A DNA stretch of 64,000 bases from assembly GCA_963849325.1 (NCBI GenBank), contig CAWKHF010000009.1, forward strand, positions 96,001 to 160,000, read 5' to 3'. The stretch comes from an uncultured Planctomycetota bacterium (GTDB lineage Bacteria; Planctomycetota; Planctomycetia; Gemmatales; Gemmataceae). The translations under genes were made by a program, and so were the position numbers. Within the stretch, counting starts at the first letter, position 1. Every line of letters starts with the position of its first letter. The notes under the pieces were generated by a model. The model saw nothing but the letters and a program-made list of their open reading frames with translations, made no database searches and was not told the DNA's origin. This document shows, in pieces, positions 6,494 through 59,186 of the stretch.

Positions 6494-6509
6494 AGCAAAC
6501 GACATGCCA
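6494..6509 (-). promoter_or_regulatory. sigma54-type promoter TGGCATGTCGTTTGCT
   Basis: GG-N10-GC, near consensus, oriented to ORF 6439. Confidence 0.75.
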
Positions 6510-6584
6510 GGAAGGGGGACAGGACGCAGAAGTTCCCCGAACCTTCGTTCCGGCAAAGGGAAAGGATGAAAAAGGAGCCGAAAA

Positions 6585-7844
6585 TTAAGCCGCCTGAGGC
6601 AGTGCAGCGACGCGCGTGTGGAAGCCCGAACGGGCGAGACCGCGAACGACGCACGGCAAAGTGTGAAAGACGTTGCGCACGCGATTGTCAACGAGGGCGT
6701 TGTCGAGTGCCAAAATGGCAGCCCCAGCGTCGATGCCAACCATGTCGAGTCCAAGCCAACCGCGATCCACGTTGACGTTGCGGAAGCCGTAGCGGCCGAG
6801 GAGGTTTCCGCGCCGATCGCGGACGGCACGATGAAGATTGTCGAGGACGAGGTCCGGCCGACGGGCGATCGAGGCGAGAGTGGCCGTCAGGTGCGCGGTG
6901 CCGTCGATCGGGCCGCTGGGGGCGTAGCAGCGATAAACGTATTCGGCCGGGGGCGTCGCGGGACCATCGCCGGCCGACAGACCCCAGTAATCGCGATAGG
7001 TTCGGTAGACGCCGGCCCGCTCGCGGCAGGTTCGATAGTTGGCGTCCGCGGCGATGCTCGCCTCCGCCTCCAGATCGACGCCGCCGGGAACAAGCCAGCT
7101 CTCCAGATCGAGCAGATCCAGCCCATACTGGAAGACGAACAGGCCGAGATCGCTGTTGTTGAAGCGCAGTCCGGCCGTGGTCCCGTAGAATGGCCGCAAA
7201 TGCTGCCAGGCTCGTACCGGCAAGGCGCGTCCCTCGTCGGCCCCGGCGGCCAGGACGTACAGGAACACCGTCTCGCCATTGAGACGGTCCCAGGAGCAGG
7301 GGAGGAAACGTCCGTCGTGACCTTGACCGTGCCGGATTAGAGACGTGTCCGACTCGGCGGGAACCGTCCAGTAGTGCCAGTCGATACGTCCCCAGAACGC
7401 CCGAGACAGACGTTCCAGCTCGGCATCGCGCAGGAAGGCGGACGCCCACAACGCCCCGGCCGCAAGCCAAGCCGTATCGATGGTGCTCAGCCGATCCGCG
7501 CCGTAGACGCGGCCGGTACGCGAGTCGAGGAAATGGGGAACGATGCCGCGATCGTGCGGTAGGACGTGCAGGGCCGTCTCCAGCCCCGTGCGGATGCGCA
7601 GGATCGCCTCGCTCGGCGTCAAAAGGCGATGAGGCTCGGCCGAAGCGAGGGCGAGGGCGATCCAGCCCATGCCGGTGGCCGCGGTGCTGTACAGGCCGTG
7701 CGGCGACAGCGGCCCGTGGTTGCGTTGGCGATCGAGGAGGAGTCCCGTCGTCGTCTGGTTGTCGAGGAAGTACTGCATCGCCTGGGCCTGCAAGCGCAGC
7801 AGCAGACGACGCTCCGCCGTGGTGAAGGGTGCCGTCCTTGGCAT
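6585..7844 (-). CDS. glucoamylase-family / GH144-like (alpha/alpha)6 glycoside hydrolase
   Basis: STAATGMG, LSTIDTAWL, WGLSAGDGP, GRYGF and GIDAG motifs; AGGAG RBS; no signal peptide. Confidence 0.75.
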   Translation of the reverse strand: MPRTAPFTTAERRLLLRLQAQAMQYFLDNQTTTGLLLDRQRNHGPLSPHGLYSTAATGMGWIALALASAEPHRLLTPSEAILRIRTGLETALHVLPHDRGIVPHFLDSRTGRVYGADRLSTIDTAWLAAGALWASAFLRDAELERLSRAFWGRIDWHYWTVPAESDTSLIRHGQGHDGRFLPCSWDRLNGETVFLYVLAAGADEGRALPVRAWQHLRPFYGTTAGLRFNNSDLGLFVFQYGLDLLDLESWLVPGGVDLEAEASIAADANYRTCRERAGVYRTYRDYWGLSAGDGPATPPAEYVYRCYAPSGPIDGTAHLTATLASIARRPDLVLDNLHRAVRDRRGNLLGRYGFRNVNVDRGWLGLDMVGIDAGAAILALDNALVDNRVRNVFHTLPCVVRGLARSGFHTRVAALPQAA

Positions 7845-7959
7845 GACTTCCACTCCTGGCCCGTCTCCGATCCGAAGTGCATTAGTGTAGCAAATCCGCC
7901 CAGAGAGGGAAGAGAAGTCGTCGCTGTGGCGCCCGAATGCTCGACCTCTGCTTCTCCGG

Positions 7960-7975
7960 CGGCATGTCTCTTGCA
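7960..7975 (+). promoter_or_regulatory. sigma54-type promoter CGGCATGTCTCTTGCA
   Basis: GG-N10-GC 58 nt upstream of the GT2 gene. Confidence 0.75.
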
Positions 7976-8032
7976 CTGCTGCGAGCGCGTCTCCGCTTCT
8001 CGGAACGCCCCTCGGCATGGAGGATACGATTG

Positions 8033-8932
8033 ATGGCAGACGCGGACCCTCGGGTGGCGGCGGTGATCCTCACCCACAACCGGCGCGAGGAAGTGCTCGC
8101 CTCCCTCGACCGGCTCACTCGATTGCCGGAACGGCCGCGCCTCGTCGTCGTGGACAACGGCTCCACGGACGGCACGGCGGAGGCGGTGATCGAACGCTTC
8201 CCGCAGGTGGAAGTCCTTTCGGCGGGCGGCAATCTCGGAGCGGCGGCGCGGAACCTGGGCGTGCGGCACGTCGCGGCGCCTTACGTCGCCCTGTGCGATG
8301 ACGATACCTGGTGGCAGCCGGGATCGCTGGCCCATGCCGCCGACCTGATGGATGCGCACCCTCGGTTGGCCGTGGCGACCGCGCGCATTCTCGTCGGGCC
8401 TGAGGAAGTGGAAGACCCCATCTGCGCCGAACTGGCGCGCAGTCCCTTGCCCTGCGAGCCGGACATGCCGGGCCGGCCGCTGTTGGGATTCATGGCTGGC
8501 GCGTCGGTTGTACGGCGTTCGGCCTTCCTCGCCGTCGGCGGTTTTGAGCCGCGCTTCTTCCTCGGCGGCGAGGAGGAACTGCTGGCCGCCGACCTCGTCG
8601 CCTCCGGCTGGTGGCTGTGCTACGTCCCGCGACTGGTCGTTCATCATTATCCGTCCACGCGCCGCGATGCCGTCTCGCGGCGCTGGCACATCCTGCGCAA
8701 CGCTCTCTGGTCCGCCTGGCTGCGTCGACCGCTGTCCGCCGCCCTGCGCAAGACCGGCCACGTCGTTCGCACGGCGCCGCGCTCGCGCGAAACCTGGCGC
8801 GGACTGGCCGCGGCCGTCGCCGGTCTGCCCTGGATCCTCCGTCAGCGTCGCGTTGTGCCGCCTCGGGTGGAGCAACAACTCCGCTTGCTGGAACAACGCC
8901 GACCTTCGTTTCCTCCTTCCCTCACGGCCTGA
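8033..8932 (+). CDS. glycosyltransferase family 2
   Basis: VVVDNGSTDGT, ARNLG, CDDD, VGGF...GGEE; GGAGG RBS. Confidence 0.92.
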   Translation: MADADPRVAAVILTHNRREEVLASLDRLTRLPERPRLVVVDNGSTDGTAEAVIERFPQVEVLSAGGNLGAAARNLGVRHVAAPYVALCDDDTWWQPGSLAHAADLMDAHPRLAVATARILVGPEEVEDPICAELARSPLPCEPDMPGRPLLGFMAGASVVRRSAFLAVGGFEPRFFLGGEEELLAADLVASGWWLCYVPRLVVHHYPSTRRDAVSRRWHILRNALWSAWLRRPLSAALRKTGHVVRTAPRSRETWRGLAAAVAGLPWILRQRRVVPPRVEQQLRLLEQRRPSFPPSLTA

Positions 8933-8934
8933 TT

Positions 8935-9701
8935 ATGTTCTTTCATCCAGACATCAAGGGCGGCGGCCTGCCGCGCGGCACGGTCTGCCTGACTTACGAC
9001 GACGGACCTGGCGCGACCGAGGGCGATGGACCCGGCCCGCATACGCGGGAACTGGGCCGGTATCTTTTCGAGCAAGAGATTGCCGCCACGTTCTTCGTGG
9101 TCGGCAGCCACGCCGAACGCCACCGCGACATCCTGGCGTCGCTCCAGGAATGGGGCCACTTCATCGGCAACCATACGTACAGCCATCCCGGACTGGTGTC
9201 CCTAGCCCTTGCCGGCGGCGACGTGGTTGGAGAACTCCAGAAGACCGACGACATTATCCGGCCGTTCGTCTCGGGAAACGTGGTTTTCTTTCGCGCCCCT
9301 ACGGCAACTGGCGCGAGAAGGTCGGCCCGGATTGCGACGAGGACAAGACCACATCGCTGGTCGCCGATCTTCTCAACTGCGGTGATGCGTTCCGCGATTA
9401 CGTCGGCCCGATCAACTGGGACATCGTCGCCGAGGACTGGGCGTGCTGGCGTCAGGGATTATCGGCGGAAGAGTGTGCCAGGCGTTACCTGGCGGAGACG
9501 GAGCGCGTCGGCAGTGGCATCATCCTTCTGCACGACAGTTCGGAAGAGGAAATGGTGCGTCGTCGAAACCTGACCATGCCGGCGACAAAAATACTCGTGT
9601 CGGAACTGAAGGCACGAGGCTATCGCTTCGTCGGACTCGATGCCGTGCCGCAGGTCGAGAGGGCCATGCGAGCGTGCCGCGAGAACGTCAAGACTTGTTG
9701 A
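8935..9701 (+). CDS. polysaccharide deacetylase (CE4), probable sequencing frameshift ~9295
   Basis: LTYDDGP, ATFFVVG, GNHTYSH, FRAP(YG), IILLHD, GYRFV spread over two frames. Confidence 0.85.
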
Positions 9702-9756
9702 TGAGAAGGAGAATGCTTGCGAGAACGTAGCCTCGTTGACTGAGGGCTGGTGTCTT

Positions 9757-10032
9757 TCACGGTGCCGAACTCAGGAACCGCGCCAGCATCGTGCGCAAAT
9801 TCAAACGTCCCGAGTCGATCCGCTGATCGGCGCGCTGACGACGGGCCAACACTTGCCAGTGCAACCACACGTAGGGGCCTTCGTCGAGCGTCCCGCGCGG
9901 CACCGTTCGTCGGCAGACATCCTCAACGCCGCCGACATCAATGTGCCAGGCCGGCAATTTCCGCGGCAGTTCGTTGACGAATCTCGGATTGTCGTTGTTC
10001 CAACCGTGACGGTATCCGACGAACTCGGTCAT
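9757..10032 (-). CDS. hypothetical protein (91 aa)
   Basis: GAGGAG RBS; follows the DksA-like gene on the same strand. Confidence 0.55.
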   Translation of the reverse strand: MTEFVGYRHGWNNDNPRFVNELPRKLPAWHIDVGGVEDVCRRTVPRGTLDEGPYVWLHWQVLARRQRADQRIDSGRLNLRTMLARFLSSAP

Positions 10033-10080
10033 GGTTTGTTCTCCTCTTCTCTCGCAGTCTTATGTCCTCTTTCGCGGCAC

Positions 10081-10482
10081 TTAAAGTAAGGTCGGCCGGA
10101 AACCCGCCTCGCCGTCGTCTTGCGCACTTTCGGCGCAATCGACGCAGTAGAGCGTGTAAGGAACGGCCTGAAGGCGGTCCTTGCCGATCTCCCGGCCGCA
10201 CCGACCACAAGTCCCATAAGTTCCTTGCTCAATCCGATCCAAGGCGGCGGCGACTTCGGTCTGCATCTGCCGCTCGTTTTGCAAGAGGCTGGCGCTCATC
10301 TCTTGCTCGAACGCATCCGTGCCAATGTCCGCCAAGTGCAGCGGTACATTGGAGAGGTTGCCGCTGGCGTCGCCGCCGGCCTGGCGCAATGCCTCTCCGC
10401 TGACTCCGGCCTCATCCCCTTTCAATCGGGCCGCCAGAACCAGCAGCCGCTGCCGGTAACGGTCTCGTTCCTCTGGGGTCAT
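10081..10482 (-). CDS. TraR/DksA C4 zinc-finger protein (YteA-like)
   Basis: HLADIGTD, ALDRIEQGTYGTCGRCG...RLQAVPYTLYCVDC. Confidence 0.92.
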   Translation of the reverse strand: MTPEERDRYRQRLLVLAARLKGDEAGVSGEALRQAGGDASGNLSNVPLHLADIGTDAFEQEMSASLLQNERQMQTEVAAALDRIEQGTYGTCGRCGREIGKDRLQAVPYTLYCVDCAESAQDDGEAGFRPTLL

Positions 10483-10645
10483 GGAGGGACTCCTCGGGTA
10501 AATGGTCCATTCGCTGTAACGGCCGGCTGCCCGAAAGAAATGCGGCCCGAGCAACCACCTGCTCGGGCCGTCTTTGTCCGGCCCCGCCCCGGTCCTATCC
10601 GCTTCCCGGAAGCCTCCTGGAGACTCGCGGTTGCGGGGATGGTTG

Positions 10646-10661
10646 TGCAAAGGTCATGCCC
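10646..10661 (-). promoter_or_regulatory. sigma54-type promoter GGGCATGACCTTTGCA
   Basis: GG-N10-GC upstream of the DksA-like gene. Confidence 0.65.
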
Positions 10662-10665
10662 GCCT

Positions 10666-11280
10666 TTACGGCCGTCGGGCTTTTTCCATCTCCCTTACCC
10701 GTTTTTCCAGTCGAGAAACGTCGCGTTCCATCTGCCGAATGCGCTCGCGCTGGCGGACAGCCCCATCCGTACCCGCACGGGTGGCGCCCCCGGACTTCCC
10801 AAACCGGAGGGAAGTAAGTACCTCGACCGAGACTTCTTCCAGTTGGACGATGACATCCTGCTTACGGCCGGCGCGCCGGATCGAGAACGTGACCTCCGCG
10901 CCCGACCCGAGACGCTTGAGCCTGGTGCTCAGTTCCTCCTGGGAGGAGAGGGTCTTGCCGTTGACGCGGGTGATGACGTCGGCGTGGCGCAGGCCGGCCT
11001 TCTCCGCCGGCGAGTCCGCCAATACCTCGACGATGACAACGCCCGCGTCCTCCTTCAGTCGCAAACGTGTCTTCACTCGTCGGCTGATGTTCACGGTGGG
11101 TACGGTGAAAATCCCCAGATACACGGCGTTCTCGACCTCACTCGTGGCGGTCTCCTCCGCGGGAATCGCATTCCCTCGCGTAGTTCCCTTCGACTCCCTC
11201 TCGCCGCCAGCCTCCACGGGGAAGGGCAGTAAGCCGGAAGATAGAGCGAGCAGTCCGATGGAAAAGAGCGATCTCAACAT
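10666..11280 (-). CDS. exported PDZ-domain protein with C-terminal coiled coil
   Basis: signal-like N-term; YLGI...GVVIVEVLADSPAEKAGLRHADVITRVNG; GAGGAG RBS. Confidence 0.85.
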   Translation of the reverse strand: MLRSLFSIGLLALSSGLLPFPVEAGGERESKGTTRGNAIPAEETATSEVENAVYLGIFTVPTVNISRRVKTRLRLKEDAGVVIVEVLADSPAEKAGLRHADVITRVNGKTLSSQEELSTRLKRLGSGAEVTFSIRRAGRKQDVIVQLEEVSVEVLTSLRFGKSGGATRAGTDGAVRQRERIRQMERDVSRLEKRVREMEKARRP

Positions 11281-11481
11281 GGGCTTCTCCTCAAAGGTGC
11301 GTGCGCGGACCTCACCCGGGACGGCGCACGCAGCCAAAAGCCGATCGACCCGGCCATCGGCCGGGTCGGGCGGCGTGGGGGGATAAGGGGGTAGATGTGG
11401 CGGACAGTGCCACGAACGAACCGGAGCGGGCGACGGCACTCAGGCCGAATAGGGTCTGCCCAGCGAACCGAGGGACGGCGA

Positions 11482-11676
11482 TTATTTGCTGCTGGCTTTC
11501 TTCTTCGCCGGCACCTTGGCGCCTTTCTGCCGCGCCTCCGACAGACCGATGGCGACCGCTTGCTTGCGGCTGGTCACCTTCTTGCCGGTCTTGCCGCTTT
11601 TCAGCTTTCCATGCTTGAACTTGTCCATCGCCTCGTGGACGGTCTCCTGGGCCTTCGCGCCGTATTTTCGCGTCAT
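11482..11676 (-). CDS. DUF6496-family small basic protein
   Basis: KFKHGKLKSG...VTSRKQAVAIGLSEAR; AGGAG RBS. Confidence 0.88.
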   Translation of the reverse strand: MTRKYGAKAQETVHEAMDKFKHGKLKSGKTGKKVTSRKQAVAIGLSEARQKGAKVPAKKKASSK

Positions 11677-11741
11677 GGGTCTCTCCTGTTCCTGGATGGC
11701 TCCCCGGTCGCATCACGTTTTGCGACTCCGCAGAGATGTTA

Positions 11742-11757
11742 TTCAAATCTGGTGCCA
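11742..11757 (-). promoter_or_regulatory. sigma54-type promoter TGGCACCAGATTTGAA (-12 variant GA)
   Basis: perfect -24 box and correct spacing, 66 nt upstream of the DUF6496 gene. Confidence 0.6.
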
Positions 11758-38047: not shown

Positions 38048-38119
38048 CAAATTCTGTAAACGCCCCGAACGGAAGTTGACGTGGTGTTTCCTTGGTACTT
38101 CGCTCAGAGGAGGTAGGCA

Positions 38120-38911: not shown

Positions 38912-38915
38912 GGTC

Positions 38916-38964: not shown

Positions 38965-38974
38965 CGTTGGCTCT

Positions 38975-44926: not shown

Positions 44927-44987
44927 CGTTTCGCCGTGACGCGCAGCGGAGCGTGTCGCGCGCTCCGCTGCGCATCGCGGCGAAACG
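44927..44987. repeat. REP-like palindrome family D, in-frame between the GT4 and GmhB domains
   Basis: encodes FRRDAQRSARHAPLRVTAKR in ORF 44452..45357. Confidence 0.88.
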
Positions 44988-46219: not shown

Positions 46220-46254
46220 GGGATGCCTCCAACGAGTAACCCCGACCAGACTCC

Positions 46255-46308
46255 TCCGAGCCGGAAGCGTGGGCGAAGGAATGGCTTCGCTTACGCTTCA
46301 GGCTCGGA
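46255..46308. repeat. REP-like palindrome family C (imperfect), supplies the stop codon of the upstream GT4
   Basis: arm CTTCGCTTACGCTTCAGGCTCGGA identical to other copies. Confidence 0.85.
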
Positions 46309-48323: not shown

Positions 48324-48398
48324 AAAGATCCTTCTCTAACCGTTGGCGCGTCCGACAACCGCGCACGGACGCGGCAGAGCGAATAGACATTTGCCGTG

Positions 48399-48426
48399 CG
48401 GAATGGTGTTTGCAAAGGAAGTGCCA
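48399..48426. promoter_or_regulatory. overlapping divergent sigma54-type promoters: TGGCACTTCCTTTGCA (-, glycan operon) and CGGAATGGTGTTTGCA (+, ppa)
   Basis: both GG-N10-GC, sharing the TTTGCAAA core. Confidence 0.7.
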
Positions 48427-48428
48427 TA

Positions 48429-48449
48429 CTTCTGTCAAATTGACAGAAG
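48429..48449. promoter_or_regulatory. operator-like dyad CTTCTGTCAA-A-TTGACAGAAG
   Basis: perfect 10-bp arms abutting the -24 box. Confidence 0.5.
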
Positions 48450-48460
48450 ACAGGGAGTTA

Positions 48461-48515
48461 TCCGAGTCGAAAGCGTAAGCGAAAGGTGTCTCTTCGCTTA
48501 CGCTTCCGGCTTGGA
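48461..48515. repeat. REP-like palindrome family C (imperfect)
   Basis: AAGCGTAAGCGAA...TTCGCTTACGCTT. Confidence 0.82.
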
Positions 48516-48533
48516 GGGGTTCGGGAGGAAGGC

Positions 48534-49079
48534 ATGGCGGCGCCGCAATCCCTCATCCAATTGGACGCGAAAGCAGCGGACGGCGAGTTGATTCACGTCG
48601 TCATCGAAACGCCCAAGGGGAGCCGGAACAAGTTCAAGTATGAGGAAGACTTGGGTTGCTTTCGGCTCAACAAAGTACTGCCTCTCGGCGCCCATTTCCC
48701 CTTCGACTTTGGGTTCATCCCGTCCACGCGCGCCGAGGACGGCGATCCCCTGGACGTGTTGGTGCTTATGGACGAACCGGCTGTCCCCGGCTGCATCGTG
48801 CCGGCTCGCCTCCTCGGCGTCATCGAGGCCAAGCAGACCGCCAAGGGCGAGACGGCCCGCAACGACCGTCTGATCGCCGTCCTCGAAACGCCTTTCAATC
48901 CGCCGGAGGTTCATTCTCTGGAAGAGATTAGCGATAACCGTTTGGCGGAACTGGAGCACTTTTTCGTTTCGTACAACCAAATGGAAGGCCGCGAGTTTGA
49001 GCCGATTGGGCGTCATGGACCCGAGCGGGCGATGGAACTTCTCCAGGAAGGAATGCAGCGTTTCCGCAAAGGGAAGTGA
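48534..49079 (+). CDS. ppa: inorganic pyrophosphatase (family I)
   Basis: IETPKGSRNK, FGFIPST..EDGDPLDVL, NDRL, HFF.SY. Confidence 0.92.
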   Translation: MAAPQSLIQLDAKAADGELIHVVIETPKGSRNKFKYEEDLGCFRLNKVLPLGAHFPFDFGFIPSTRAEDGDPLDVLVLMDEPAVPGCIVPARLLGVIEAKQTAKGETARNDRLIAVLETPFNPPEVHSLEEISDNRLAELEHFFVSYNQMEGREFEPIGRHGPERAMELLQEGMQRFRKGK

Positions 49080-49088
49080 GCACCATTC

Positions 49089-49153
49089 GTTTAGCCGCGA
49101 CGCGCAGTGGAGCGCGGGACAAACTCGCGCTCCGCTGCGCGTCGCGGCGAAAC
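49089..49153. repeat. REP-like palindrome family D
   Basis: between convergent ppa and the FAD oxidoreductase. Confidence 0.88.
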
Positions 49154-49213
49154 TCGTGGGCACCCTGATACTCAAAGGCGGGAAGTCTCTCGCCCTGATG
49201 GTCGAAGCAGAGA

Positions 49214-50785
49214 TCATTCCGGCTTGCTCGGCAGCGGCTCCAACCCCTTGTTCGCGGGTCCGACCACAACGCCGCCGGTGCAGCGGAAGCGCGAGCCGTG
49301 GCAGGGACAATCCCAGGTCTTCTCCGACGCATTCCAGGACACCATACAGCCCAGGTGGGGACACACGGCGGAAAAGGCGTGGACGACCCCGGAATCGTCG
49401 CGGTAGACAGCGGCCTTGCTCGCGCCGTGACGGATCACCGCGCCCGAGCCGGCGGCGATGTCCGCGACCGAACCGACGTCGCCGCCGGTGAGCCAGTCGG
49501 CGTATTGCCGGGCGACGTTGAGGTTTTCGCTCAGAAATTCCTTGGCGGCCCCCAGCGTTTTACGGGACGGATCGTAGAGCGCAGCCCAGGGATTGTCGCG
49601 CCCCAGAATGAGGTCGGTCAACAACAGGCCGGCGATGGTGCCGTGCGTCATTCCCATGCCGGAGTCGCCGGTGGCGATGTACACGTTGTCGGCATCCCCC
49701 GGATTGCGGCCGATGAAGGCGACGCCGTCGATTGGTTCCATGACCTGCCCCGACCAGCGAAACGACACCGGCCCCATGCGCGGAAAGCGCTCGCGCACCC
49801 ACGCTTCCAGGCGGTGATAGCGCTCTTCCTGATCGCTGGCCTGGCCCGTCTTGTGGTCCTCGCCGCCGACGATCAGCAACTCCTCTTTGTCCGGGTCCAG
49901 CGCCGTGCCTCCTTCGGCCGCGGCGGACGTTTCCAGTTTCTGCAGGCGAACGTAGTGATAAGGGTCGAGCGTGTCCCAGTACAGCGCTTTCGTCACCCAG
50001 CCGCGCGGGACGGCAGCGGCGATGACGTAGCTCAGATAGGGCGCCTGCTTGGTGTGGATGGCGAGCCGATCGTTGACAGGCGTGTTGGTGGCGACCACCA
50101 CGGCGGAGCAGGCGACCTCCGCTCCGTCCGCCGTCCTCACCCGCGCCGAAGGGCCGCCGTCCATCTGCTGCGCATGGGTGCCGATGAAGATGCGTCCTCC
50201 CTTGCGCGTGAAGGCCAACGCCAATCCACTCAGGTAGCGAAGGGGGTGAAACTGCCCCTGTCCCGGAAAGCGTAGACAGGGCCGTTCCGGCCACGGTGAC
50301 GGCAGCTTGTCGAGCAACTCCACGGAAGTCAGACCGGCGCGGCGGGCGGCGTCTCGTTCCTGCTCCAAAATGTCCGCCGATTCGCCGGGCGGAACGAACA
50401 GGTAGCCGTCCAGCCGTTCGTAATCGCAGTCGATTTGTTCCTGTCGGGCGATCTCACCGATCTTCTCGATGGCGGCGGTATGGCTGTGGGCGGCCAGGCG
50501 AGCACCCTCGGACCCGTGCAGGCGCTCGATCTCGACATAGCGGTCGTCCAGCGCGTTGGACAGATGCGCCGTCGTTTTGCGAGTCTGCCCGTCGGCGATG
50601 GGTCCGTCGTCGAGGACGACGACGGACTTGCCGGCGGAGGCCAACAAGTAGGCCGTGCTCAGCCCGGCGATGCCGGCGCCGACCACGCAGACGTCAGCCT
50701 TGGTGTTGTGGAAAAGCGGCGCTTGGCGCAAATGGGAGGACGTTGCCGACCAGTAGGAGAGGTGCTGCCGGGTCTCCGTCTGCAT
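49214..50785 (-). CDS. FAD-dependent oxidoreductase with C-terminal Rieske 2Fe-2S domain (YhfW-like)
   Basis: [27 protein letters not shown]...[10 protein letters not shown]. Confidence 0.93.
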
Positions 50786-50865
50786 GGCGCGGCTCCTTGG
50801 CGAGAACGAACGGGAGGGGCCAGCAAATAAAGGTGCCGTGCCCCTCCCCAATGAGAGAGGGCGGA

Positions 50866-51372
50866 TCAAACCCCTTGCGGTTGATGCTGGGCGGCCAGGT
50901 TGACCATGCCTTCGGCAATCTGCGTCAATTTGTGGTCGGCCTCCTTCTCCTCGTGCAGCGTCTGCTCGATGAGGTCGGCAATCTCGTGGTGATTCAGCTG
51001 CCGCGCCCAGGTGCGCAGGCAACCGTAGACGGCCATTTCGTAGTGCTCCACGCGCTGGGCGGCGGCGATCAGGCCCGCGTCCAGGACCATCGGCTCGCCA
51101 TCGGCATCAAGGATGTCCTCGCCCTCCTCAATGATCCCTTGCATGCCGTCGCACGATTTGCCGCGCGCCTTCTTGCCCAACAGGTCGAAGACGCGCTCCA
51201 AACGTTCGATGTGTCCGCGCGTCTGGTCCAGGTGCTCCTCGAAGGCGGCACGAAGTTCGTCCGCCGAGGCCGCCTTGGCCATTTTCGACAGCGCCTTGAT
51301 GAGCTGCTTCTCCGCGTCATACGTGTCGCGCACTTGCTCGAAGAACAGATCCTCCAGCGAATGCAGTTTCAT
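50866..51372 (-). CDS. ferritin-like YciE/YciF (DUF892) stress protein
   Basis: [42 protein letters not shown]. Confidence 0.94.
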
Positions 51373-51442
51373 GAATCACCTCTCCCGTGGCAACAGCATC
51401 GTGGTCCGACCCGGACCTGTGCCGGGTTTCTCTTCTCCTACG

Positions 51443-51458
51443 TGCAAACGTCAGACCG
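51443..51458 (-). promoter_or_regulatory. sigma54-type promoter CGGTCTGACGTTTGCA
   Basis: GG-N10-GC 71 nt upstream of the yciF-like gene; weaker -24 box. Confidence 0.5.
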
Positions 51459-51506
51459 AAACGACCACTCCCTTCGGTCCCGAGTCCTGGCTCAGGGTAC
51501 GGGGAC

Positions 51507-51522
51507 GGGTATGGCGATTGCA
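51507..51522 (+). promoter_or_regulatory. sigma54-type promoter GGGTATGGCGATTGCA
   Basis: GG-N10-GC 48 nt upstream of small ORF 51570. Confidence 0.6.
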
Positions 51523-51569
51523 CGGAAGGGAGAAGTGGATTTCCGAACATCTCTTACAGGAGAGGACCA

Positions 51570-51791
51570 ATGGGCCAGCAGAAGAAAGCCCGAGACGGGC
51601 CGGCGACGGGAGGGTCGTCCAAACCCCTGGATCCCGAAGCGGCGCAGCCGCCGGCTTCTCCGGGAACGGACCCAACTAATCCGCACAACCAGGAACCGAC
51701 GGGAGAGTGGGTCGCCGCCGAACGCGCCTCCGACCGCCGTAACAGCGAGCCGGGATTGACCGAGCACGACCGCCAACAGCGCAAATACTGA
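51570..51791 (+). CDS. small hydrophilic hypothetical protein (73 aa)
   Basis: AGGAGAGG RBS plus sigma54 box; hydrophilin-like composition. Confidence 0.65.
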   Translation: MGQQKKARDGPATGGSSKPLDPEAAQPPASPGTDPTNPHNQEPTGEWVAAERASDRRNSEPGLTEHDRQQRKY

Positions 51792-51801
51792 GGATCGACC
51801 A

Positions 51802-51887
51802 AGCCGCGACTATCCGAGCCGCGACCGTCAGGGAGCGGGGCTTTCTCCGCTCCCTGACGGTCGCGGCTCGGACAGTCGCGGCTCGGA
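51802..51887. repeat. REP-like palindrome family E (CCGAGCCGCGACCGTCAGGGAGCGG) with partial flanking duplications
   Basis: inverted repeat 51813-51872; partial arm also at 15560-15574. Confidence 0.88.
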
Positions 51888-51898
51888 AGGGTCTGTTT

Positions 51899-51914
51899 CG
51901 GCATATGAATTGCT
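51899..51914 (+). promoter_or_regulatory. sigma54-type promoter CGGCATATGAATTGCT
   Basis: GG-N10-GC upstream of the response regulator. Confidence 0.65.
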
Positions 51915-52086
51915 GAAGTTGAGCGGGTAAGTTATGCCGAAAAGGAAGACCCTAGCACGGAGGTTTGGCGACGAATCTGCAATGAAGCATCCCGGGAGAG
52001 TGGAGCCTCCCCAGTCGGATGGATCCTCCAGGAGTGGAGGTTTCGCTCGACTGACTCCTGATGATTGCCCGGAATGAGGTTCCTCC

Positions 52087-52467
52087 ATGAGCGTCTATCA
52101 AGCGGGCAGGAGCATTTTGCTTGTCGAAGATGACGAAATCGTTCGTCGTGCCATGCAGATGGTCCTGGAGTGGGAAGGTTATCCGGTCGATTGCGTGACC
52201 AACGGACAGGAAGCGCTCGATTTCCTCCGGGCCGGCCATCGCCCCTCGCTCATCCTGCTCGATGTGATGATGCCCGTGCTCGACGGCGAGCAATTTCGCC
52301 GGCAGCAGAAGCGCGACCCGGACCTCGCTTCCATTCCCGTCATCGTCGTTTCCGCCACCAGCCAGGCCGCGACCGTGGATGCGGTCTGCCACGTCCGCAA
52401 GCCATTCGAGGTCGAGGAGTTGTTGACCGCCATCCGCGAACATGGTCTTTCGCAGTCGGGAGCGTAA
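52087..52467 (+). CDS. single-domain response regulator (receiver)
   Basis: ILLVEDD, ILLDVMMP.LDG, VVSA, KPF. Confidence 0.93.
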   Translation: MSVYQAGRSILLVEDDEIVRRAMQMVLEWEGYPVDCVTNGQEALDFLRAGHRPSLILLDVMMPVLDGEQFRRQQKRDPDLASIPVIVVSATSQAATVDAVCHVRKPFEVEELLTAIREHGLSQSGA

Positions 52468-52480
52468 GAGGCACGAACCG

Positions 52481-52543
52481 AATGTGGCGGCACGTTTGTA
52501 ACGTGCCGTACAATCCAACACGTTGAAAACGTGTTGCCACATT
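52481..52543. repeat. double-hairpin element (GGCACGTT-N3-AACGTGCC twice) closed by AATGTGGC/GCCACATT
   Basis: directly visible between convergent genes. Confidence 0.75.
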
Positions 52544-52581
52544 TTGGTAGAGCCTCTAAACGAAGAAAGACATTCCTTCGC

Positions 52582-54386
52582 TTACGCTCCCGGCTCCGAC
52601 TTCGCTCGCATGGACAAATCCTCGCTCAGGGAGGAGACGGCCTCTTCCGATGGCTGGGTCTGCCTCAGCCGCCATCTGCCGTCGCCGTACAATTCGAGCC
52701 ATTGGTCATGATAGGGCTGCAATCCCGTGGGGTCTCCGACGCTGACGTAGGTGATCGAGGAACGGACGAGCGCCTCATAGAGGTGCTGCAAGCGTGAAGA
52801 CCCCAAGGCCCAGGGTACGCCGTCCAGGAAGACGAAGCGCGGTTTGGCGAGCAGAAGCCGCGCCAGCGCCAGGGCGTGCTGGTCTCCCGCCGAGAGGTCG
52901 TTGCGCCAGTCCCATTCGCCGTCCAGTCCGCCCTCGTCCCGCGCCAGGTAATCCAGACCCACATCGCGCAGGGTGTCGCGCAATGTTTCGTCATCCGCTT
53001 CCTCGTCGTCAAGCCCGTAACGGAGCAGGTCGCGCAATCGTCCGGTGGCGGTGTACAGCCGCTGCGGCAGGAACACGACGTCGCCCGAAGGTGGGCAGAA
53101 GACCTTACCCTCGCCCTCGCCCCAGAGTCCGACCGTGGCGAGGCACAGCGCCGTCTTGCCGCAGCCAGATGGCCCGCTGACAAGCAGCCTGCGGCCTTCC
53201 GCAACTTCGAGGGTGAGGTCGCGGACGAGGACCCGCTTGTCCGCAGGCGTCCACAGCGTCAAACCTTCGTAAGCGATGCGGTGCTTGTCCTCGGCCGTCT
53301 CGATGCCGGGCGCGGCTTCTCGGGCTGTGCCGGTTCCTCGGCAGAGGGAGCCGCTGGCTCCGGTTCCCCACGGCCGGACGGCGGCGCCGACTCGGTCGCC
53401 TCCCACATGGAGCCGAGGCGGTTGACCACGGCGGCGAAGGTGGACATCTCCTGGAATTTCGTGACGATGAGCGAGAAAGCGCCGACCACCTGGCCGAACG
53501 CGACGGCGGCCTGCGGGATCGTTCCGAACTCGACGACGCCGCGGAAGTACAAGGGCGCCACCACCACGGCGGGGAGGATCTGAATCAGGTAGTTGTACTC
53601 CTTGGTGAAGAAGCCGACGTTGCGGGTGACGGCGATGATAGCGCGGAAATTCGCCACCAGCGCGTTCAGCCGATCGAGGAGGCGCGACTTCTCGTCACGG
53701 GGACCATCGCGGTCGGCGTCCGTCTGCCGGCGCTCGCGGACGCGGCCCAGAGCGAAGCGGAAGTCGGCCTCTTTCTGCAACTGGCGGTTGTTGAGCGGCA
53801 CCAGGCGGCGCCCCAGGAGAATCGTGCCCAGCGAGCCGGCGGCGGAGTAAAGCACGGCCGTCAGAACCAGCCAGGGCGTGATCGACCACAGCACGCCCAG
53901 GAACGCCAGCAAGGTCAGAATGCCGTTGAGGATCAGGACGATGAACGACAGGCTCGACGTGGTGAACGTCTTGACGTCCTCCTGGATGCGCTGGTCCGGG
54001 TTGTCGATGGACTGGTTGACGGTTCGCCGATGGTAGGCGCGGTGGGCCAGGTAACGGTCGAGCAGACGGCGCGTCAGCCACTCACGCCAGAATAGCCCCA
54101 GCCGTTGCTCGGTGAAATAGGAGAAGACCTCGCCGATCGTGGCGAGGGCAAATACGCCCGCCAGCACGCCGCCGAAAAGGTAAAAGCGAGCGCCATGCCG
54201 CTGCTCCAGCGCCGTCATGAAGTCGCGCATGACGTAGCTGTTGAAGAAGTTCAGGCCGGTGACCACCAGCAGCAGGACGACGAGGATAATGAGGGCGGCG
54301 ACCGCTTTCTTGCGGGCCTCGGACACAAAAAAGGGCCAGGCGATGGTGGCGAATCGCCGCCATAACGGATGTTTGAAGAGGCGCAT
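52582..54386 (-). CDS. SbmA/BacA-like (YddA/ABCD-type) transporter with degenerate NBD, probable frameshift ~53290
   Basis: DNPDQRIQEDV, EADFRFAL.RVRE, FAAVVNRLG; GPSGCGKT, FLPQR. Confidence 0.85.
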
Positions 54387-54458
54387 GGGTCCTTGCCTAC
54401 CGCGGTCCTCCAAGGGCGTGGCCACAGCTTCACCGGGCGAGGGTCAGCGACCCGGACG

Positions 54459-54947
54459 TCACAGTCCGAGTGGAGGGACGGAGGCCTCTAGCCCGGCCGA
54501 GGGTTCCTGACGGCGGATGGGGATGCGCCGGCCCTTGGCCTCTTCCGGCAGCGGTAGATGCAGTTCGAGGATGCCATTGCGGTACGAAGCCTGCACCCGA
54601 TCCGGGTTGATGCCGTGCGGGACGCGAAGCGTCTCCTCATAATGGCTGTAGCGGTTGCCTTCCTCTCCTGTCCACCGGCGATCGGCCCGGATGGTCAGCA
54701 CCTCATCGTGAAGGGTCACGTCGAAGTCGTTGACCTCCCAGCCCGGCAGGGCCGCCTTGACCACCATCTCGGTATCGCGCGTATCCACGTCGAGCATACC
54801 GGACGGCATCGGACCCTGTGCGGATCGACCGCCGACCAAACGGTCGAACAGAGCACGGGCCTCGCGCCGCAGTTCGTCCAGGGGGTGAAACCCGCGCGCG
54901 GACAAATCGTAGCCGCGCGGATGCTTCCAGGGGATGAGGTTCATCAT
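54459..54947 (-). CDS. Hsp20/alpha-crystallin small heat-shock protein
   Basis: [34 protein letters not shown]. Confidence 0.9.
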
Positions 54948-55042
54948 GGCGATCGCTCCGTTCTTGGGATTCGTCCACGCCGCTCCGAGGTCCGAAAAGG
55001 CAAAAATCGAGCCGACATCATCGGCCGGATGCAGAATCTAAA

Positions 55043-55086
55043 CGCAAACCCGATGCCACAGCGAGGATAACGGCGCGCCGTATGCT
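55043..55086. promoter_or_regulatory. back-to-back sigma54-type promoters: TGGCATCGGGTTTGCG (-, hsp20) and CGGCGCGCCGTATGCT (+, fumC)
   Basis: both GG-N10-GC at 55043-55058 and 55071-55086. Confidence 0.65.
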
Positions 55087-55120
55087 CCCGAAACGGAACA
55101 GCGAACGGAGGACACTTCCC

Positions 55121-56593
55121 ATGACTCAGTCCCACGTCAAAACCTTCGAGAAGGAGCACACCCCACCAATCCTTGACCTCCCTGTCGGGACGGGACAGAC
55201 GGGCACGCGCATCGAGTCGGACTCGATGGGCGAGATCGCCGTACCGGCGGAACACTACTGGGGCGCCCAGACGCAGCGATCGCTGATCCACTTTTCCATC
55301 GGCGCCGATCGCATGCCGCTGCCGGTGTATCACGCCTACGGCTTCGTCAAGAAGGCGGCGGCGCAGACCAACGCCGACCTCGGCCGACTGCCGCGCTGGA
55401 AGGCCGACCTCATCGCGCGCGTCGCCGACGAAGTGATCGCCGGCCGGCTCGACGACGAATTTCCGCTATACGTTTGGCAGACCGGCTCCGGTACGCAGAC
55501 GAACATGAACGTCAACGAGGTCGTCGCCAACCGTGCGATCCAGCTCACCGGCGGCACGCTCGGCAGCAAACGGCCCATCCATCCCAACGACGACGTCAAC
55601 AAGAGCCAATCGTCCAACGACACCTTTCCGACGGCCATGCACGTTGCCGCCGCGCGGGAGATTCACCAGCGCTTGCTGCCTTCGGTCACGGCGCTGCGGG
55701 ACGCGATCGCGGCCAAATCGCGGCAGTTCGCCGACGTGGTCAAGATCGGCCGGACGCACCTGCAAGATGCGGTGCCGCTGACCGTCGGCCAGGAGTGGTC
55801 CGGCTACGTCGCCCAGCTCGACGACGCGCTGGCGCGAGTCCGGGACGTCTTGCCCGGACTCTATCGACTGGCGATGGGAGGCACGGCCGTCGGCACCGGG
55901 TTGAATGCTCCGGAAGGCTTCGCCGAGGCGGCGGCCGCTCGAATCGCCGAGTATACCGGCCTGCCGTTCGTGACGGCGCCGAACAAGTTCGCGGCCCTGG
56001 CCGCCACCGACGCCATCGTGGCCGTTCACGGCACCCTGCGCGGACTGGCGGCGGCGCTGATGAAATTCGCCAACGACGTCCGCTGGCTCGCCTCCGGTCC
56101 ACGCTGCGGACTGCACGAACTGGTCCTACCGGAGAACGAGCCGGGTTCGTCGATCATGCCCGGCAAGGTCAACCCCACGCAGGCCGAGGCGATGCTGATG
56201 ATCTGCATTCAGGTGATGGGACTGGACGCCGCCGTCGGCTTCGCCGGCGCGATGGGAAACTTTGAACTGCACACCTTCCGTCCTCTCCTGATTCACAACA
56301 CGCTGCACAGCATCCGCCTGCTCGCCGATGTGTGCGAAACATTCCGCCGGCATTGCGCGGAGGGAATCCAGCTCGACCAGGAGCGTATCCACGAGATGGT
56401 GGGCCGCTCCCTCATGCTTGTCACCGCACTGAGTCCGATCCTCGGCTACGATGGCGCCGCGGCCATCGCCCACCAGGCGCACGTGGAAAACAAGACACTG
56501 CGTGAGGTAGCGGTCGTCGGCGGTCATATCTCGGCCGAGGAGTTCGACCGCCTCGTCGATCCGTCCCGGATGACCAGCCCCCCGGCGCCATAA
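55121..56593 (+). CDS. fumC: class II fumarate hydratase
   Basis: [53 protein letters not shown]. Confidence 0.96.
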
Positions 56594-56674
56594 CCGTAAG
56601 TTTGTTTAGCCGCGACGCGCAGCGGAGCGCGGCTGCCGCGCTCCGCTGCGCGTCGCGGCTAAACAAACTTACGG
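56594..56674. repeat. REP-like palindrome family D with extended arms, overlapping the SDR stop
   Basis: CCGTAAGTTTGTTTAGCC...GGCTAAACAAACTTACGG. Confidence 0.92.
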
Positions 56675-57700
56675 GCGTGAGGGCAATCCCATCTCGTTGT
56701 TCTCGCGGGCGGCTCGCTCGGTTCGGGCGGTGAGCCACGAAGGCGCGGCCGGCGATTCGCTCTCCCAGCCATAGGCGGGTGCGCTGCCGATGCCGCCCGG
56801 TCCCGGCAGCAATCGATTCACCCAGCCGCACAGGTCGGAGACCAGACCCGGAGCGATGCCGTGCAGAAGCACCCCCAGCTTCGCCGGCAACGACAGGACG
56901 ACCTCCGCCTTGCCATGCCGGCAGGCATCGAGGATGTCCCGGGCGGCGCGCTCGGCGCTGATGGAGAAGATCGGCAACGAATCGGAGAGAGTGAACCAGG
57001 CGTACTCCGCCCGATGTTGTCCCTTGAACGTGGCGTTGCGCGGACTGCCGGTGCGCATCAAGCCGGGGCAGACGGTGGTGACGACGATGCCGTCCTTGGC
57101 CAACTCCGCTCGCAAGCCCTCCGACAGTCCCACCAACGCGAATTTGCTGCCACTGTAGGGCAGCAGGTGAGGCACGCTGATCTTGCCGCCGATGGAAGTG
57201 ATGTTGACGATGCGGCCAGCGCGGCGCTGGCGCATCTCCGGCAGCACTTCGAGGATCGTATGCACCGCCGCGAAATAGTTAATCGCCATGGCATCATAGA
57301 AGTCTTCTCGCGTCATCGTCTCGACGGGTCCGACGCCGATGATGCCGGCATTGTTGATGAGCACGTCGATGGCGCCGAAATGCCGGCGCACCTCGTCCAC
57401 GAACGCGCCGACCTGATCGCGGTAACGCAGGTCGCAGGTCTGGGCCACCACCTGAGCACCGCGGTCGGTGAGATCCTCGCGGGCGCGGCGAACCTCCTCG
57501 GGGTCGCGGGCACACACCGCCAGTTTGGCTCCCTCGTGCGCCAACTGGCGGGCCAGGACCAAGCCCAGACCCCGCGTACCGCCGGTGAGCAACACCGTCT
57601 TGTCGCAAAAACAGTAGGCCGTACGCGCCTGGTACACACGGTAGGCGAGCCACGAGGCCAGGCCCGCCCCGGCCAACAGCATCGCTTTCTGTTTATTCAT
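56669..57700 (-). CDS. short-chain dehydrogenase/reductase with N-terminal membrane anchor
   Basis: TGGTRGLG, NNAG, YSGSK, PGLMRTGS. Confidence 0.93.
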   Translation of the reverse strand: MNKQKAMLLAGAGLASWLAYRVYQARTAYCFCDKTVLLTGGTRGLGLVLARQLAHEGAKLAVCARDPEEVRRAREDLTDRGAQVVAQTCDLRYRDQVGAFVDEVRRHFGAIDVLINNAGIIGVGPVETMTREDFYDAMAINYFAAVHTILEVLPEMRQRRAGRIVNITSIGGKISVPHLLPYSGSKFALVGLSEGLRAELAKDGIVVTTVCPGLMRTGSPRNATFKGQHRAEYAWFTLSDSLPIFSISAERAARDILDACRHGKAEVVLSLPAKLGVLLHGIAPGLVSDLCGWVNRLLPGPGGIGSAPAYGWESESPAAPSWLTARTERAARENNEMGLPSRP

Positions 57701-57724
57701 GACACAACCTCTCCGTCAAAGACG

Positions 57725-58867
57725 TCACGAACCTCCCGAAGGCGATTCGGCGTGAACCAGATCGGGCTTCTTGATCGGCGGGCGCTGAATCTCCTGGTCC
57801 GGCGCCGGTCGCCGCTCGCGCTCGAACGGCCCCAGTCGCACCGGCTGGCCCGACTGGGCCGACTGGTACAGGGCACGGATGACGCGGACATCGGCCAAAC
57901 CCTCCTGGCCCGACGGCTCCGGAGCTTCGCCCTTCAAAACGCAGTTGGAGAAGTAGAGTAGCTGCGGCCCGAACTGATCGCGCTTCGAGAAGGCCGTCTC
58001 CTTCGTCTTGCCATCCATCGTCAAATAATGCTTGAGTTCGCCGACGAAATCGTAAGCCGGGTCGAGCCGCAGGTCGCCCTTGCTGCCGACCACGCGATAA
58101 GCGGATACCGATGCGGTGCTGAAACTACACGTGAACGCCGCCACCCGATCGCCGGGGAAACGCAGGATAGCGCTGGCCATCTCCTCGACCTCCCGGAACC
58201 GTTCCTCGCCGTTATTGGCGCAGACGGCGAAGACTTCGCTCGGCTCGGCCCGGAAGAGGTAGCGAGCGGCGTTGATGCAGTAAATGCCGATGTCGTAGAG
58301 AGTGCCGCCTCCGGTCTCCTTCCGCAGCCGGATGTCGCCCGGCTTCACCTCTTGCGTGAACGTGGAATTGAAAAGGCGAACGTCTCCCAGCTGGCCCGAC
58401 TGCACGAATTCAATGGCCTTCAAGTTCGCCTCCTCGAAATGGAGACGGTAGGCAACCATCAACTTCACCTCGTTGTCCTTGGCCTCGGCGATCATGACCT
58501 CGCAGTCTTCCTCGGTCAGGGCCATCGGCTTTTCGCAGAGGATGTGAACACCGGCTCGCGCCGCTCGCACCGTGTAGTCGCGGTGCATGCTGTTAGGCAA
58601 ACCGATGTAGACGGCGTCCACCTCGCCGTTGTTCAGGCAGTCCTCGTACTGCTCATACGAATAGAGGCGTTTCACACCGTACTGCCGGCCGAGTTCCTTG
58701 AGCTTGTCGGCATCGCTGGAGACGAGAGCGGTCAGTTCCGAGTTTTCTTTCGCATTGGCGAAAGCCGGGAGAAGGGCCACCTGCGAGATGTAACCGAGGC
58801 CGACCACGGCGTAACGGACCTTGCCGTTGGCTCCCTGGCGCGTGCGTTGCCTGTTCGCGTTTTTCAT
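57725..58867 (-). CDS. Gfo/Idh/MocA family oxidoreductase
   Basis: VVGLGYI, LPNSMH, CEKPMA, AYRLHFE, GGGTLYDIGIYC. Confidence 0.93.
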   Translation of the reverse strand: MKNANRQRTRQGANGKVRYAVVGLGYISQVALLPAFANAKENSELTALVSSDADKLKELGRQYGVKRLYSYEQYEDCLNNGEVDAVYIGLPNSMHRDYTVRAARAGVHILCEKPMALTEEDCEVMIAEAKDNEVKLMVAYRLHFEEANLKAIEFVQSGQLGDVRLFNSTFTQEVKPGDIRLRKETGGGTLYDIGIYCINAARYLFRAEPSEVFAVCANNGEERFREVEEMASAILRFPGDRVAAFTCSFSTASVSAYRVVGSKGDLRLDPAYDFVGELKHYLTMDGKTKETAFSKRDQFGPQLLYFSNCVLKGEAPEPSGQEGLADVRVIRALYQSAQSGQPVRLGPFERERRPAPDQEIQRPPIKKPDLVHAESPSGGS

Positions 58868-58941
58868 GGGAGATTTCTCGTGAGGGTTGCGACAAAGCCG
58901 ATCGCGGTTGCGACCCGCGACGGCATGTTCTCCTTATTCCG

Positions 58942-58957
58942 TGCAATGCCGATGCCA
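58942..58957 (-). promoter_or_regulatory. sigma54-type promoter TGGCATCGGCATTGCA
   Basis: near-consensus, 75 nt upstream of the Gfo gene. Confidence 0.75.
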
Positions 58958-59170
58958 CGAGCTCTCTTCGTGCCCGATGAAAATGCTGGGCTTTTTTCGG
59001 ACTGCAAGGCGGGAAGGAAACGCGAACTTTGAGGAAGAGTGGTACGCAATGGAGCGCAGCGGGGTGCGCTGGCGTCTTGAAGCTCTATGTCGCCGAGGCA
59101 TCCCGTTTCCCATCGTCCACGCGGGGTCGCAGGCTTGCGAACCGCCGCGAAACACTTGAGGACGGCACTA

Positions 59171-59186
59171 TGGCATCTCAATTGCT
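59171..59186 (+). promoter_or_regulatory. sigma54-type promoter TGGCATCTCAATTGCT
   Basis: near-consensus, 59 nt upstream of the SDR gene. Confidence 0.78.

Follow-up and report, generated by a model that had tools for sequence, protein, structure and literature searches.

The window analysed here is a stretch of 64,000 nucleotides (64 kb) on contig C9 of G000, the 85% complete genome of an uncultured member of the Gemmataceae (Planctomycetota). It carries a set of putative sigma-54 (RpoN) promoter boxes in front of genes for a YciF protein, Hsp20, several dehydrogenases and an envelope-glycan cluster (Table 1). A first-pass annotation had listed fifteen such boxes as the mark of a stress programme run by sigma-54. 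We found all fifteen at the positions and on the strands given there, with scores of 10.6-19.2 bits on a weight matrix trained solely on G000 upstream regions outside the window, and they point at genes from 35-175 nt upstream, as had been claimed. They show GG at -24 and GC at -12 (GA in the variant at 11742) with a fixed spacing and a gene-facing orientation, the features of sigma-54 promoters. Thirteen look solid and two are doubtful, one of them being the weak box at 55071. The other, at 48399(+), takes its -12 half from the palindromic half of the strong 48411(-) box and has an off-consensus -24 half, and no counterpart was found in the syntenic locus of the relative G007. Genes were called with our own rough hexamer procedure (7444 genes and 5825 upstream regions in G000), which hides the boxes at 6494 and 38032.

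Table 1. Predicted sigma-54 boxes and associated features of the window (for minus-strand boxes the coordinate used in the text is the low end)
Feature	Position	Strand	Score (bits)	Genes downstream and remarks
Box	6494..6509	-	17.2	67-amino-acid (aa) open reading frame (ORF) 6236-6439 (no known family) and ABC exporter
Box	7960..7975	+	17.0	Family 2 glycosyltransferase (GT2) 8033-8932
Box	10646..10661	-	14.5	DksA/TraR zinc-finger (YteA-like) gene 10081-10482
Box, GA variant	11742..11757	-	14.6	DUF6496 gene 11482-11676
Box	35790..35805	+	13.7	YgaP/SRPBCC cyclase 35917-36657 and Zn-dependent dehydrogenase 36706-38079
Box	38032..38047	+	15.8	TIGR03000-domain gene 38120-38911
Box, doubtful	48399..48414	+	13.3	Inorganic pyrophosphatase 48534-49079
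Box, strongest	48411..48426	-	19.2	Heads nine-gene envelope-glycan cluster, ~39.0-48.3 kb
Box	51443..51458	-	13.1	yciF/DUF892 50866-51372 and FAD-Rieske oxidoreductase 49214-50785; retained in G007
Box	51507..51522	+	12.1	73-aa ORF 51570-51791, no known family
Box	51899..51914	+	17.1	Single-domain receiver; retained in G007 (17.7), decayed in G001
Single-domain response regulator	52087..52467	+		Putative sigma-54 target
Second Hsp20 box, missed by the first-pass annotation	54999..55014	-	13.6	Hsp20
Box	55043..55058	-	15.9	Hsp20 54459-54947
Box, weak	55071..55086	+	10.6	Fumarase C 55121-56593
Box	58942..58957	-	15.8	Gfo/Idh/MocA oxidoreductase 57725-58867 and short-chain dehydrogenase/reductase (SDR) 56669-57700
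Box	59171..59186	+	17.2	SDR 59245-60330 (NF005495 above cut-off) and PCC-domain gene
First boxed-gene cluster	6236..11757			
Second boxed-gene cluster	35790..64000			Extends for another ~12 kb past the window end, with cupin, CBS, HAD and glucan genes

The boxes are far more frequent than expected, both against shuffled sequence and against housekeeping genes, the comparison by which the first-pass annotation had proposed to check them. Matches to the strict pattern YGGCAY-N5-TTGC number 8 in the window, where 100 dinucleotide shuffles gave 0.79 on average (maximum 4), and 63 on the sense strand of the 5825 G000 upstream regions, where 15 shuffles gave 1-10. Ten alternative spacers give only 1-9 strict matches each in the same regions, and the genome-wide signal is tied to one spacing. 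With the matrix at 13 bits or more, 133 of the 5825 upstream regions are hit, compared with 19 and 21 in the reversed and complemented controls. A dispersed, near-identical repeat of ~75 nt with internal inverted repeats, present at 52477-52555 (-) and in 23 copies in the genome, imitates a sigma-54 box (13.8 bits) and was dropped from the counts. The window holds 10 strong boxes where the mean is 0.82 per 64 kb (247 tiles), a top value that it shares with an overlapping tile, and is the densest box cluster of G000.

Within the window the boxes are concentrated in two clusters. Genes with a box of at least 12 bits number 0 of 4 in 0-6.3 kb, 3 of 7 in 6.4-11.8 kb, 0 of 16 in 11.8-35.5 kb and 10 of 20 in 35.6-64 kb, the genome-wide rate being 169 of 5825. 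The housekeeping stretch is free of promoter boxes, as had been read by eye; between 12 and 31 kb the matrix finds three matches that score 12-14 bits, all of them intragenic. The proposed layout of two gene islands stands as far as the window goes, except that the second island extends past its end, with 5 of 8 genes boxed in the next 12 kb. Since the GC content stays at 0.62-0.70 throughout, these are functional clusters and not compositionally foreign DNA; a reading as foreign islands was rejected on the same ground.

The boxes are also conserved at orthologous loci, sampled from genus to class level and counted at 12 bits or more, as the first-pass annotation would have predicted. For yciF, 18 of 26 loci are boxed, one of them G000's second copy and 4 weak loci of 30 being left out, against 0 of 26 in the reversed control and 2 in the downstream control. 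Leaving out G000's own loci, 13 of 15 orthologues of the cyclase behind the 35790 box and 5 of 5 orthologues of the GT9 glycosyltransferase behind the 48411 box are boxed, whereas the upstream regions of fae carry a box in 0 of 30 loci. Four window boxes are retained in synteny in G007, and at seven same-genus yciF loci the box and the leader are conserved and the DNA further upstream is not. Chance matches in GC-rich DNA could at most account for single sites, given that one of the fifteen boxes is weak and another derives from its opposite neighbour, and that controls put the false-call rate of the matrix at ~12-15% genome-wide at 13-14 bits; for the set as a whole, the tenfold enrichment, single spacer, strand bias, conservation and empty fae regions leave chance practically refuted. 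We regard the boxes as very probably real sigma-54 promoters. The leader of the second yciF (L108:1960-2100 (-) and six same-genus loci) contains a conserved GC-rich hairpin with GGA words, and CsrA control of this gene is possible because csrA is itself boxed.

Boxed yciF is largely a planctomycete trait. Among 80 named yciF loci, the best of 594 confirmed, a box was found in 12 of 18 from Planctomycetota (two of which overlap with the 26-locus set), 2 of 26 from Acidobacteria, 1 of 18 from Verrucomicrobia, 2 of 6 from Chloroflexota, 0 of 5 from Gemmatimonadota and 0 of 7 from other phyla. Strong boxes outside planctomycetes belong to two Chloroflexota, two Acidobacteria and one Verrucomicrobia (among L199, L194, L198, L231, L255 and L225), and the wiring is thus sporadic there. 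Verrucomicrobial yciF genes (L195-L266) show another motif, RCGCR-N16-20-CGTTY, 70-95 nt upstream in 10 of 18 loci, compared with a shuffle mean of 0.4 and 0 of 18 planctomycetes, for a pattern drawn by eye from the same rows. It looks like a promoter of the extracytoplasmic function (ECF) type.

Genome-wide, we estimate about 110-130 sigma-54 sites in G000, and annotated the 99 genes outside the window that have a box of at least 13.5 bits at 25-200 nt. Among them are genes for a second YciF, ferritin, KGG, YflT, DUF1328, Hva1, DUF2795 and Zn-dehydrogenase, for TreZ, GlgE, glucan phosphorylase, amylase, HPF and Hsp20, and for two CBS proteins, two cupins and DksA/TraR; otsA lies in an operon behind a boxed gene, and kinases and one activator are boxed too. 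We take these target families to be general-stress markers, and KGG and YflT are so named by Pfam. Typical stress targets in G000 share one promoter type, with csbD, one BON gene and one DUF1328-like gene as exceptions. The boxed genes are likely to be induced by stress or growth arrest. On balance, we favour the view that RpoN governs a genome-wide regulon, of which the window is the largest cluster and in which the largest group that can be recognised comprises genes that SigB, RpoS or EcfG control elsewhere. This group would cover ferritin-like proteins, small proteins of membrane or hydrophilic type, the turnover of trehalose and glycogen, dehydrogenases and envelope glycan.

The machinery for such a regulon is present. 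A single rpoN, with activator-interacting (AID), core-binding and DNA-binding domains, was found in G000 when its presence was checked, and rpoN occurs in 42 of 42 near-complete relatives. In G000 it has a box 143 nt upstream, within recR, and it is boxed in 13 of 30 relatives (reversed control 1). Searches of G000 gave five sigma70 genes that have region 3, two RpoD-like, two group-2-like and one FliA; none reaches the SigB/F/G cut-off, and SigB/F/G were found in 0 of 61 genomes. No G000 sigma factor passes the RpoS cut-off (best 269 against 378.7 bits), and no PhyR-like domain scores above cut-off in G000, NepR and EcfG not having been searched for. The group-2-like sigma at C12:183.1-184.3 kb (L083), which scores best on the RpoS model, adjoins a probable ribosomal S1 gene and is unboxed; the second one, at C2:436 kb (L086), is likewise without a sigma-54 box. 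An RsbW-like ATPase, below cut-off, carries a weak box in G000.

As the first-pass annotation had supposed, activators are encoded outside the window: G000 has at least 14 intact-looking ones, which are strong matches, and two split ones, and the sigma-54 contact loop is represented among them. One of them, at C12:226094-227491 and here called EBP-G, has the REC-AAA-HTH architecture of the NtrC type, with a phospho-Asp receiver (REC), Walker A and B motifs, a GAFTGA-type loop that reads GSFTGA, and a Fis-type helix-turn-helix (HTH). Across its family the receiver Asp, Thr and Lys are invariant, Walker A is present, the loop is GSFTGA or GAFTGA and the HTH is distinctive. Activation without an HTH, as by CtcC, was considered for EBP-G and rejected, the C-terminal HTH being conserved. 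Among the matches listed, no named NCBIfam activator family reaches its cut-off with EBP-G; the closest solved relatives of EBP-G are 4l4u and 1ny5, and its close relatives carry Gemmataceae names at NCBI. In a tree that leaves out one G000 activator (on C4), 14 EBP-G rows form one clade apart from the other G000 activators (97/90). A profile of its C-terminus splits 61 genomes cleanly (E <1e-23 or >1e-8), and over 250 genomes of the phylum 32 gave intermediate matches alone (E 1e-12 to 1e-20) and were left unassigned.

Among the annotated neighbourhoods of G000 activators, that of EBP-G is the sole one with stress genes: treY and a DUF1328-like gene lie there, as do a single receiver (C12:228034) and a PAS hybrid kinase. 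Of 15 EBP-G loci from other genera, 8 show a stress marker in the 12-20 kb that were covered (yciF, csbD, DUF1328, holin-X, AI-2E, PRC, DUF2383 or DUF2171), and coordinates place csbD or yciF at most 15 kb from EBP-G in three further genomes. A kinase-receiver-hybrid kinase trio adjoins it in six or seven of the other-genus loci, and the G000 counterpart of this trio (C7:689568-693409, with a single receiver at C7:691301) is boxed. The intergenic DNA between EBP-G and the relay genes holds a conserved sigma70-like promoter facing EBP-G (in G000 TTGTCA-N17-TACCAT, read by eye) and, in 8 of 10 same-genus loci, a sigma-54 box facing the relay. Across 51 genomes of the order, EBP-G is present in 19 of 20 yciF-positive and 10 of 31 yciF-negative genomes, and in 16 of 16 csbD-positive and 13 of 35 csbD-negative ones, figures that are overstated because related genomes are not independent. 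Strong yciF matches and EBP-G each occur in a single one of 15 genomes of the sister family, and it is the same genome, with two copies of each, 12-19 kb apart. The genome-wide box excess is 15.9 with EBP-G (n=20) and 1.9 without (n=30; p 0.013), a weak comparison, given its noise, its dependence on kinship and a repeat that inflates the figure for one genome. We give EBP-G a somewhat better than even chance of being the main activator. Also near EBP-G in one relative, G023, is a Ter-associated stress cluster (L181:11735-17018; ATP-grasp, PRTase, StiP, C-C lyase), and in the same genome the candidate activator is adjoined by a 65% match of a 515-aa protein of the window (62218-63765 (-)) with weak similarity to di-heme peroxidases.

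The nature of the targets could also suit a developmental regulon, in which sigma-54 drives a resting, attached or swarmer cell type, as sigma-54 and CtcC do for the late genes of Chlamydia, a precedent from the PVC (Planctomycetes-Verrucomicrobia-Chlamydiae) group (PMC7482065). The envelope-glycan cluster (GT9, GT1/GT4, HAD, PfkB-cytidylyltransferase, GT9, carbamoyltransferase, GT2) lies behind the box that scores highest and is best conserved, and boxes are also found for HPF, storage glucans and csrA, and probably for fliA. The sensors adjoining EBP-G are varied PAS/GAF/CHASE3 kinases, as many inputs would need, which speaks against such a programme. Most named targets are multi-stress markers elsewhere, and we hold a developmental regulon to be quite improbable.

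Returning to the stress reading, what is seen is that RpoN boxes precede stress-type genes in G000 and its relatives, and that one NtrC-type family, EBP-G, has an intact phospho-site, Walker A and GSFTGA loop and a sigma70-like promoter. We hypothesise that EBP-G is made constitutively and is phosphorylated by PAS/GAF/CHASE3 kinases through single-domain receivers and hybrid kinases, and that its ATPase would then open sigma-54 complexes waiting at stress genes. With rpoN and relay genes among the targets, their conserved boxes suggest a positive feedback, which the receiver at 52087 may tune. More speculatively, many promoters might be activated with a degenerate enhancer or none. Taken together, and as a tentative proposal that we would not yet expect to hold in full, the Gemmataceae may have a fourth type of general stress response, with no stress sigma or anti-sigma factor, in which an EBP-G that is made constitutively and gated by phosphorelay would open sigma-54 polymerase already bound at dozens of scattered, largely enhancer-free promoters, and in which rpoN, the relay genes and chaperones would form a positive feedback; other planctomycete orders would use other activators, and soil Verrucomicrobia an ECF-like promoter.

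Several findings weigh against this scheme. On the side of the targets, groES, groEL, dnaK, two amtB genes, a REC-ANTAR protein and csrA are boxed as well, fliA probably so, and 41 of the 99 annotated targets have no Pfam family; being genome-wide and holding chaperones, ammonium transporters, csrA and rpoN, the sigma-54 regulon is not purely one of stress. A check starting from the markers found G000's sole csbD, one of its two BON genes and one DUF1328-like gene unboxed, treY has merely a weak, distant box, and in relatives csbD is boxed in just 9 of 26 loci (3 sub-cut-off loci of 29 left out). According to PMC2754498, heat did not raise the rpoN mRNA of Rhodopirellula baltica and salt lowered it. 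Part of the response could be carried by the C12:183.5 kb group-2-like sigma and by the many ECF factors. On the side of the activator, none of five same-genus EBP-G loci has a stress marker, only a receiver and a kinase; EBP-G is present in 10 genomes that lack yciF; at class level the link fails, since 5 of 9 genomes lack EBP-G despite having yciF or csbD, and yciF is boxed in three of these five; and no enhancer connecting EBP-G with its targets was found in G000. The earlier claim that the stress programme runs through sigma-54 is sustained in that the boxes hold up as real, enriched and conserved at stress orthologues, and has to be narrowed in that the regulon is wider and some markers are unboxed.

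The unboxed csbD, BON and DUF1328-like genes, together with the high rank of the group-2-like sigma on the RpoS model, the lack of a detected enhancer and the overlapping or back-to-back boxes at 48.4, 51.5 and 55.05 kb, might indicate that this factor or an ECF sigma is the stress master and that the boxes are secondary or hold genes shut. We consider this very unlikely, since the 200 nt upstream of the boxes show no second common motif, the boxes face their genes at 35-175 nt and persist across families while the flanks change, and a dedicated activator sits among the targets in relatives.

A shared enhancer was sought as dyads, palindromes and 6-7-mers over a 200-nt stretch in front of each of 107 boxed promoters, and none of these survived multiple testing (best p 1e-5 in ~35,000 tests), and expectation-maximisation on 47 stress-type promoters did no better than on random sets. 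The dyad GCA-N6-TGC, found in 21 of 90 promoters of relatives, was not accepted as an enhancer: in held-out loci it occurred in 5 of 23, with spacer 9 as common (6 of 23), and in G000 in 5 of 47 and 9 of 107 promoters against a background of 6-7%. The free DNA upstream of the 107 boxes is shorter than 30 nt in 9 and than 100 nt in 30 (median 181), so enhancer-free activation is possible for some promoters. Enhancer-poor activation is proposed because of this lack of a shared enhancer and because some boxes lie directly behind the previous gene, the one at 10646..10661 merely 4 nt beyond its stop codon. Enhancers may also be located in coding DNA or differ by activator. Another reading has sigma-54 acting as a broad second sigma factor, with several activators each serving a subset (chaperones, nitrogen, envelope or storage), no master switch, and EBP-G acting on its neighbours alone. 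This agrees with the 14 or more activators and mixed targets, with the absence of a shared enhancer among the 107 or 47 promoters, with a genome-wide box excess as high as 31-43 in three genomes of the same genus in which no yciF was found, and with boxed yciF genes in orders for which the search gave no EBP-G. We nevertheless think it unlikely, as EBP-G alone tracks stress genes by neighbourhood and co-occurrence, and as, of five yciF-positive genomes chosen for having EBP-G, just one contains a close match (58%) to another activator, at C4:8024-9379. That activator, a self-boxed REC-AAA-HTH protein (18.2 bits), lies with REC-ANTAR, PAS kinase and multi-receiver genes (G000:C4:8024-13000, L092).

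The lone receiver at 52087 had been suggested as a partner of the activator, for which we found no link. It is better read as a target, because it has its own box and EBP-G is flanked by other receivers and kinases; it possibly serves as a phosphate sink or relay. Matches to it, at 79%, were found solely in two same-genus loci. The nearby 73-aa ORF is conserved in two relatives and gave no match at 0.9 in an atlas search; an Rfam search gave no match. Beyond the window the second cluster continues (G000:C9:160-175 kb, L047) with genes for HAD, cupin, CBS and erythromycin-esterase family proteins and a large, fragmented glucan synthase/phosphorylase-like gene. Intergenic hairpin repeats resembling repetitive extragenic palindromes stand beside boxed promoters at ~35720-35760, 48470-48510, 49090-49150 and 51820-51870. 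Frameshifts split genes at 8932-9700, 36706-38079, 39946-41674, 44321-48323 and 52582-54386 (deacetylase-like, dehydrogenase, carbamoyltransferase, glycosyltransferases, ABC transporter); occurring in many genes of the assembly, they are most likely sequencing or assembly errors.

Studholme and Dixon (2004) reportedly compiled an in-silico sigma-54 regulon that included Planctomycetia. The claim that a regulon like the present one had not been described stands in so far as we found no description in print of a planctomycete sigma-54 general stress regulon, most subscription papers lying outside coverage, and is weakened by in-silico precedent for planctomycetes. In the parts of PMC12316311 that were accessible, sigma-54 control is predicted in Planctomycetia for chaperones, USP, MscS, CBS, CsrA and an NtrC-type regulator, and in those of PMC2754498 one thioredoxin is proposed to be under rpoN in a planctomycete. 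These regulons share chaperones, CBS, csrA and the NtrC-type regulator with ours, and within the same portions propose no stress regulon, YciF/CsbD link or activator. In the supplementary files of PMC12316311 that were covered, which do not include its per-gene predictions, the COG numbers of YciF, CsbD, YciG, YtjA and Zn-dehydrogenase gave no match. A planctomycete rpoN complements Salmonella, according to the accessible part of PMC3906078. Judged from sequence, the wiring of stress-type genes by sigma-54 is real and conserved, and the candidate activator is good but unproven. The precedent lowers the value of the finding, which nevertheless offers an activator open to testing, a list of promoters and ~40 uncharacterised genes as candidates for survival functions, in a family with cultured members.

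The general stress regulons of SigB in Bacillota, RpoS in Gammaproteobacteria and EcfG-NepR-PhyR in Alphaproteobacteria have targets that overlap with those found here, namely YciF, CsbD, KGG, YflT, DUF1328, ferritin and trehalose and glycogen enzymes; a difference is that searches of the 85% complete G000 gave no member of the Ku, Mn-catalase, PRC and GlsB families. The alphaproteobacterial regulon is treated in PMC8103513 and PMC5964349. As at the MrrA hub of Caulobacter, one output seems to be fed here by several kinases and single-domain receivers. In Ralstonia solanacearum, too, a box scan gave many hypothetical targets and an rpoN that is itself sigma-54-dependent (PMC4371752, in part), but there are two genes, rpoN1 and rpoN2, against one here, and the word 'stress' is absent from the main text of that paper. 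Chlamydia, a PVC relative, likewise uses sigma-54 for a survival-form programme, with the difference that CtcC lacks a DNA-binding domain and activates without one, whereas EBP-G has a conserved HTH, and the targets differ (PMC7482065, in the parts available). With NtrC, ZraR and AtoC, EBP-G shares the REC-AAA-HTH architecture with intact motifs, -24/-12 promoters and a divergent kinase operon; unlike them, it would have dozens of scattered candidate targets, no detected enhancer and a distinct HTH signature. Finally, unlike in the SigB, RpoS and EcfG systems, the output here would be the ATPase of a sigma-54 activator and not the release of a sigma70-family factor, which, if true, would give the response another logic, with a tight off state, ATP-dependent opening and a quick response.

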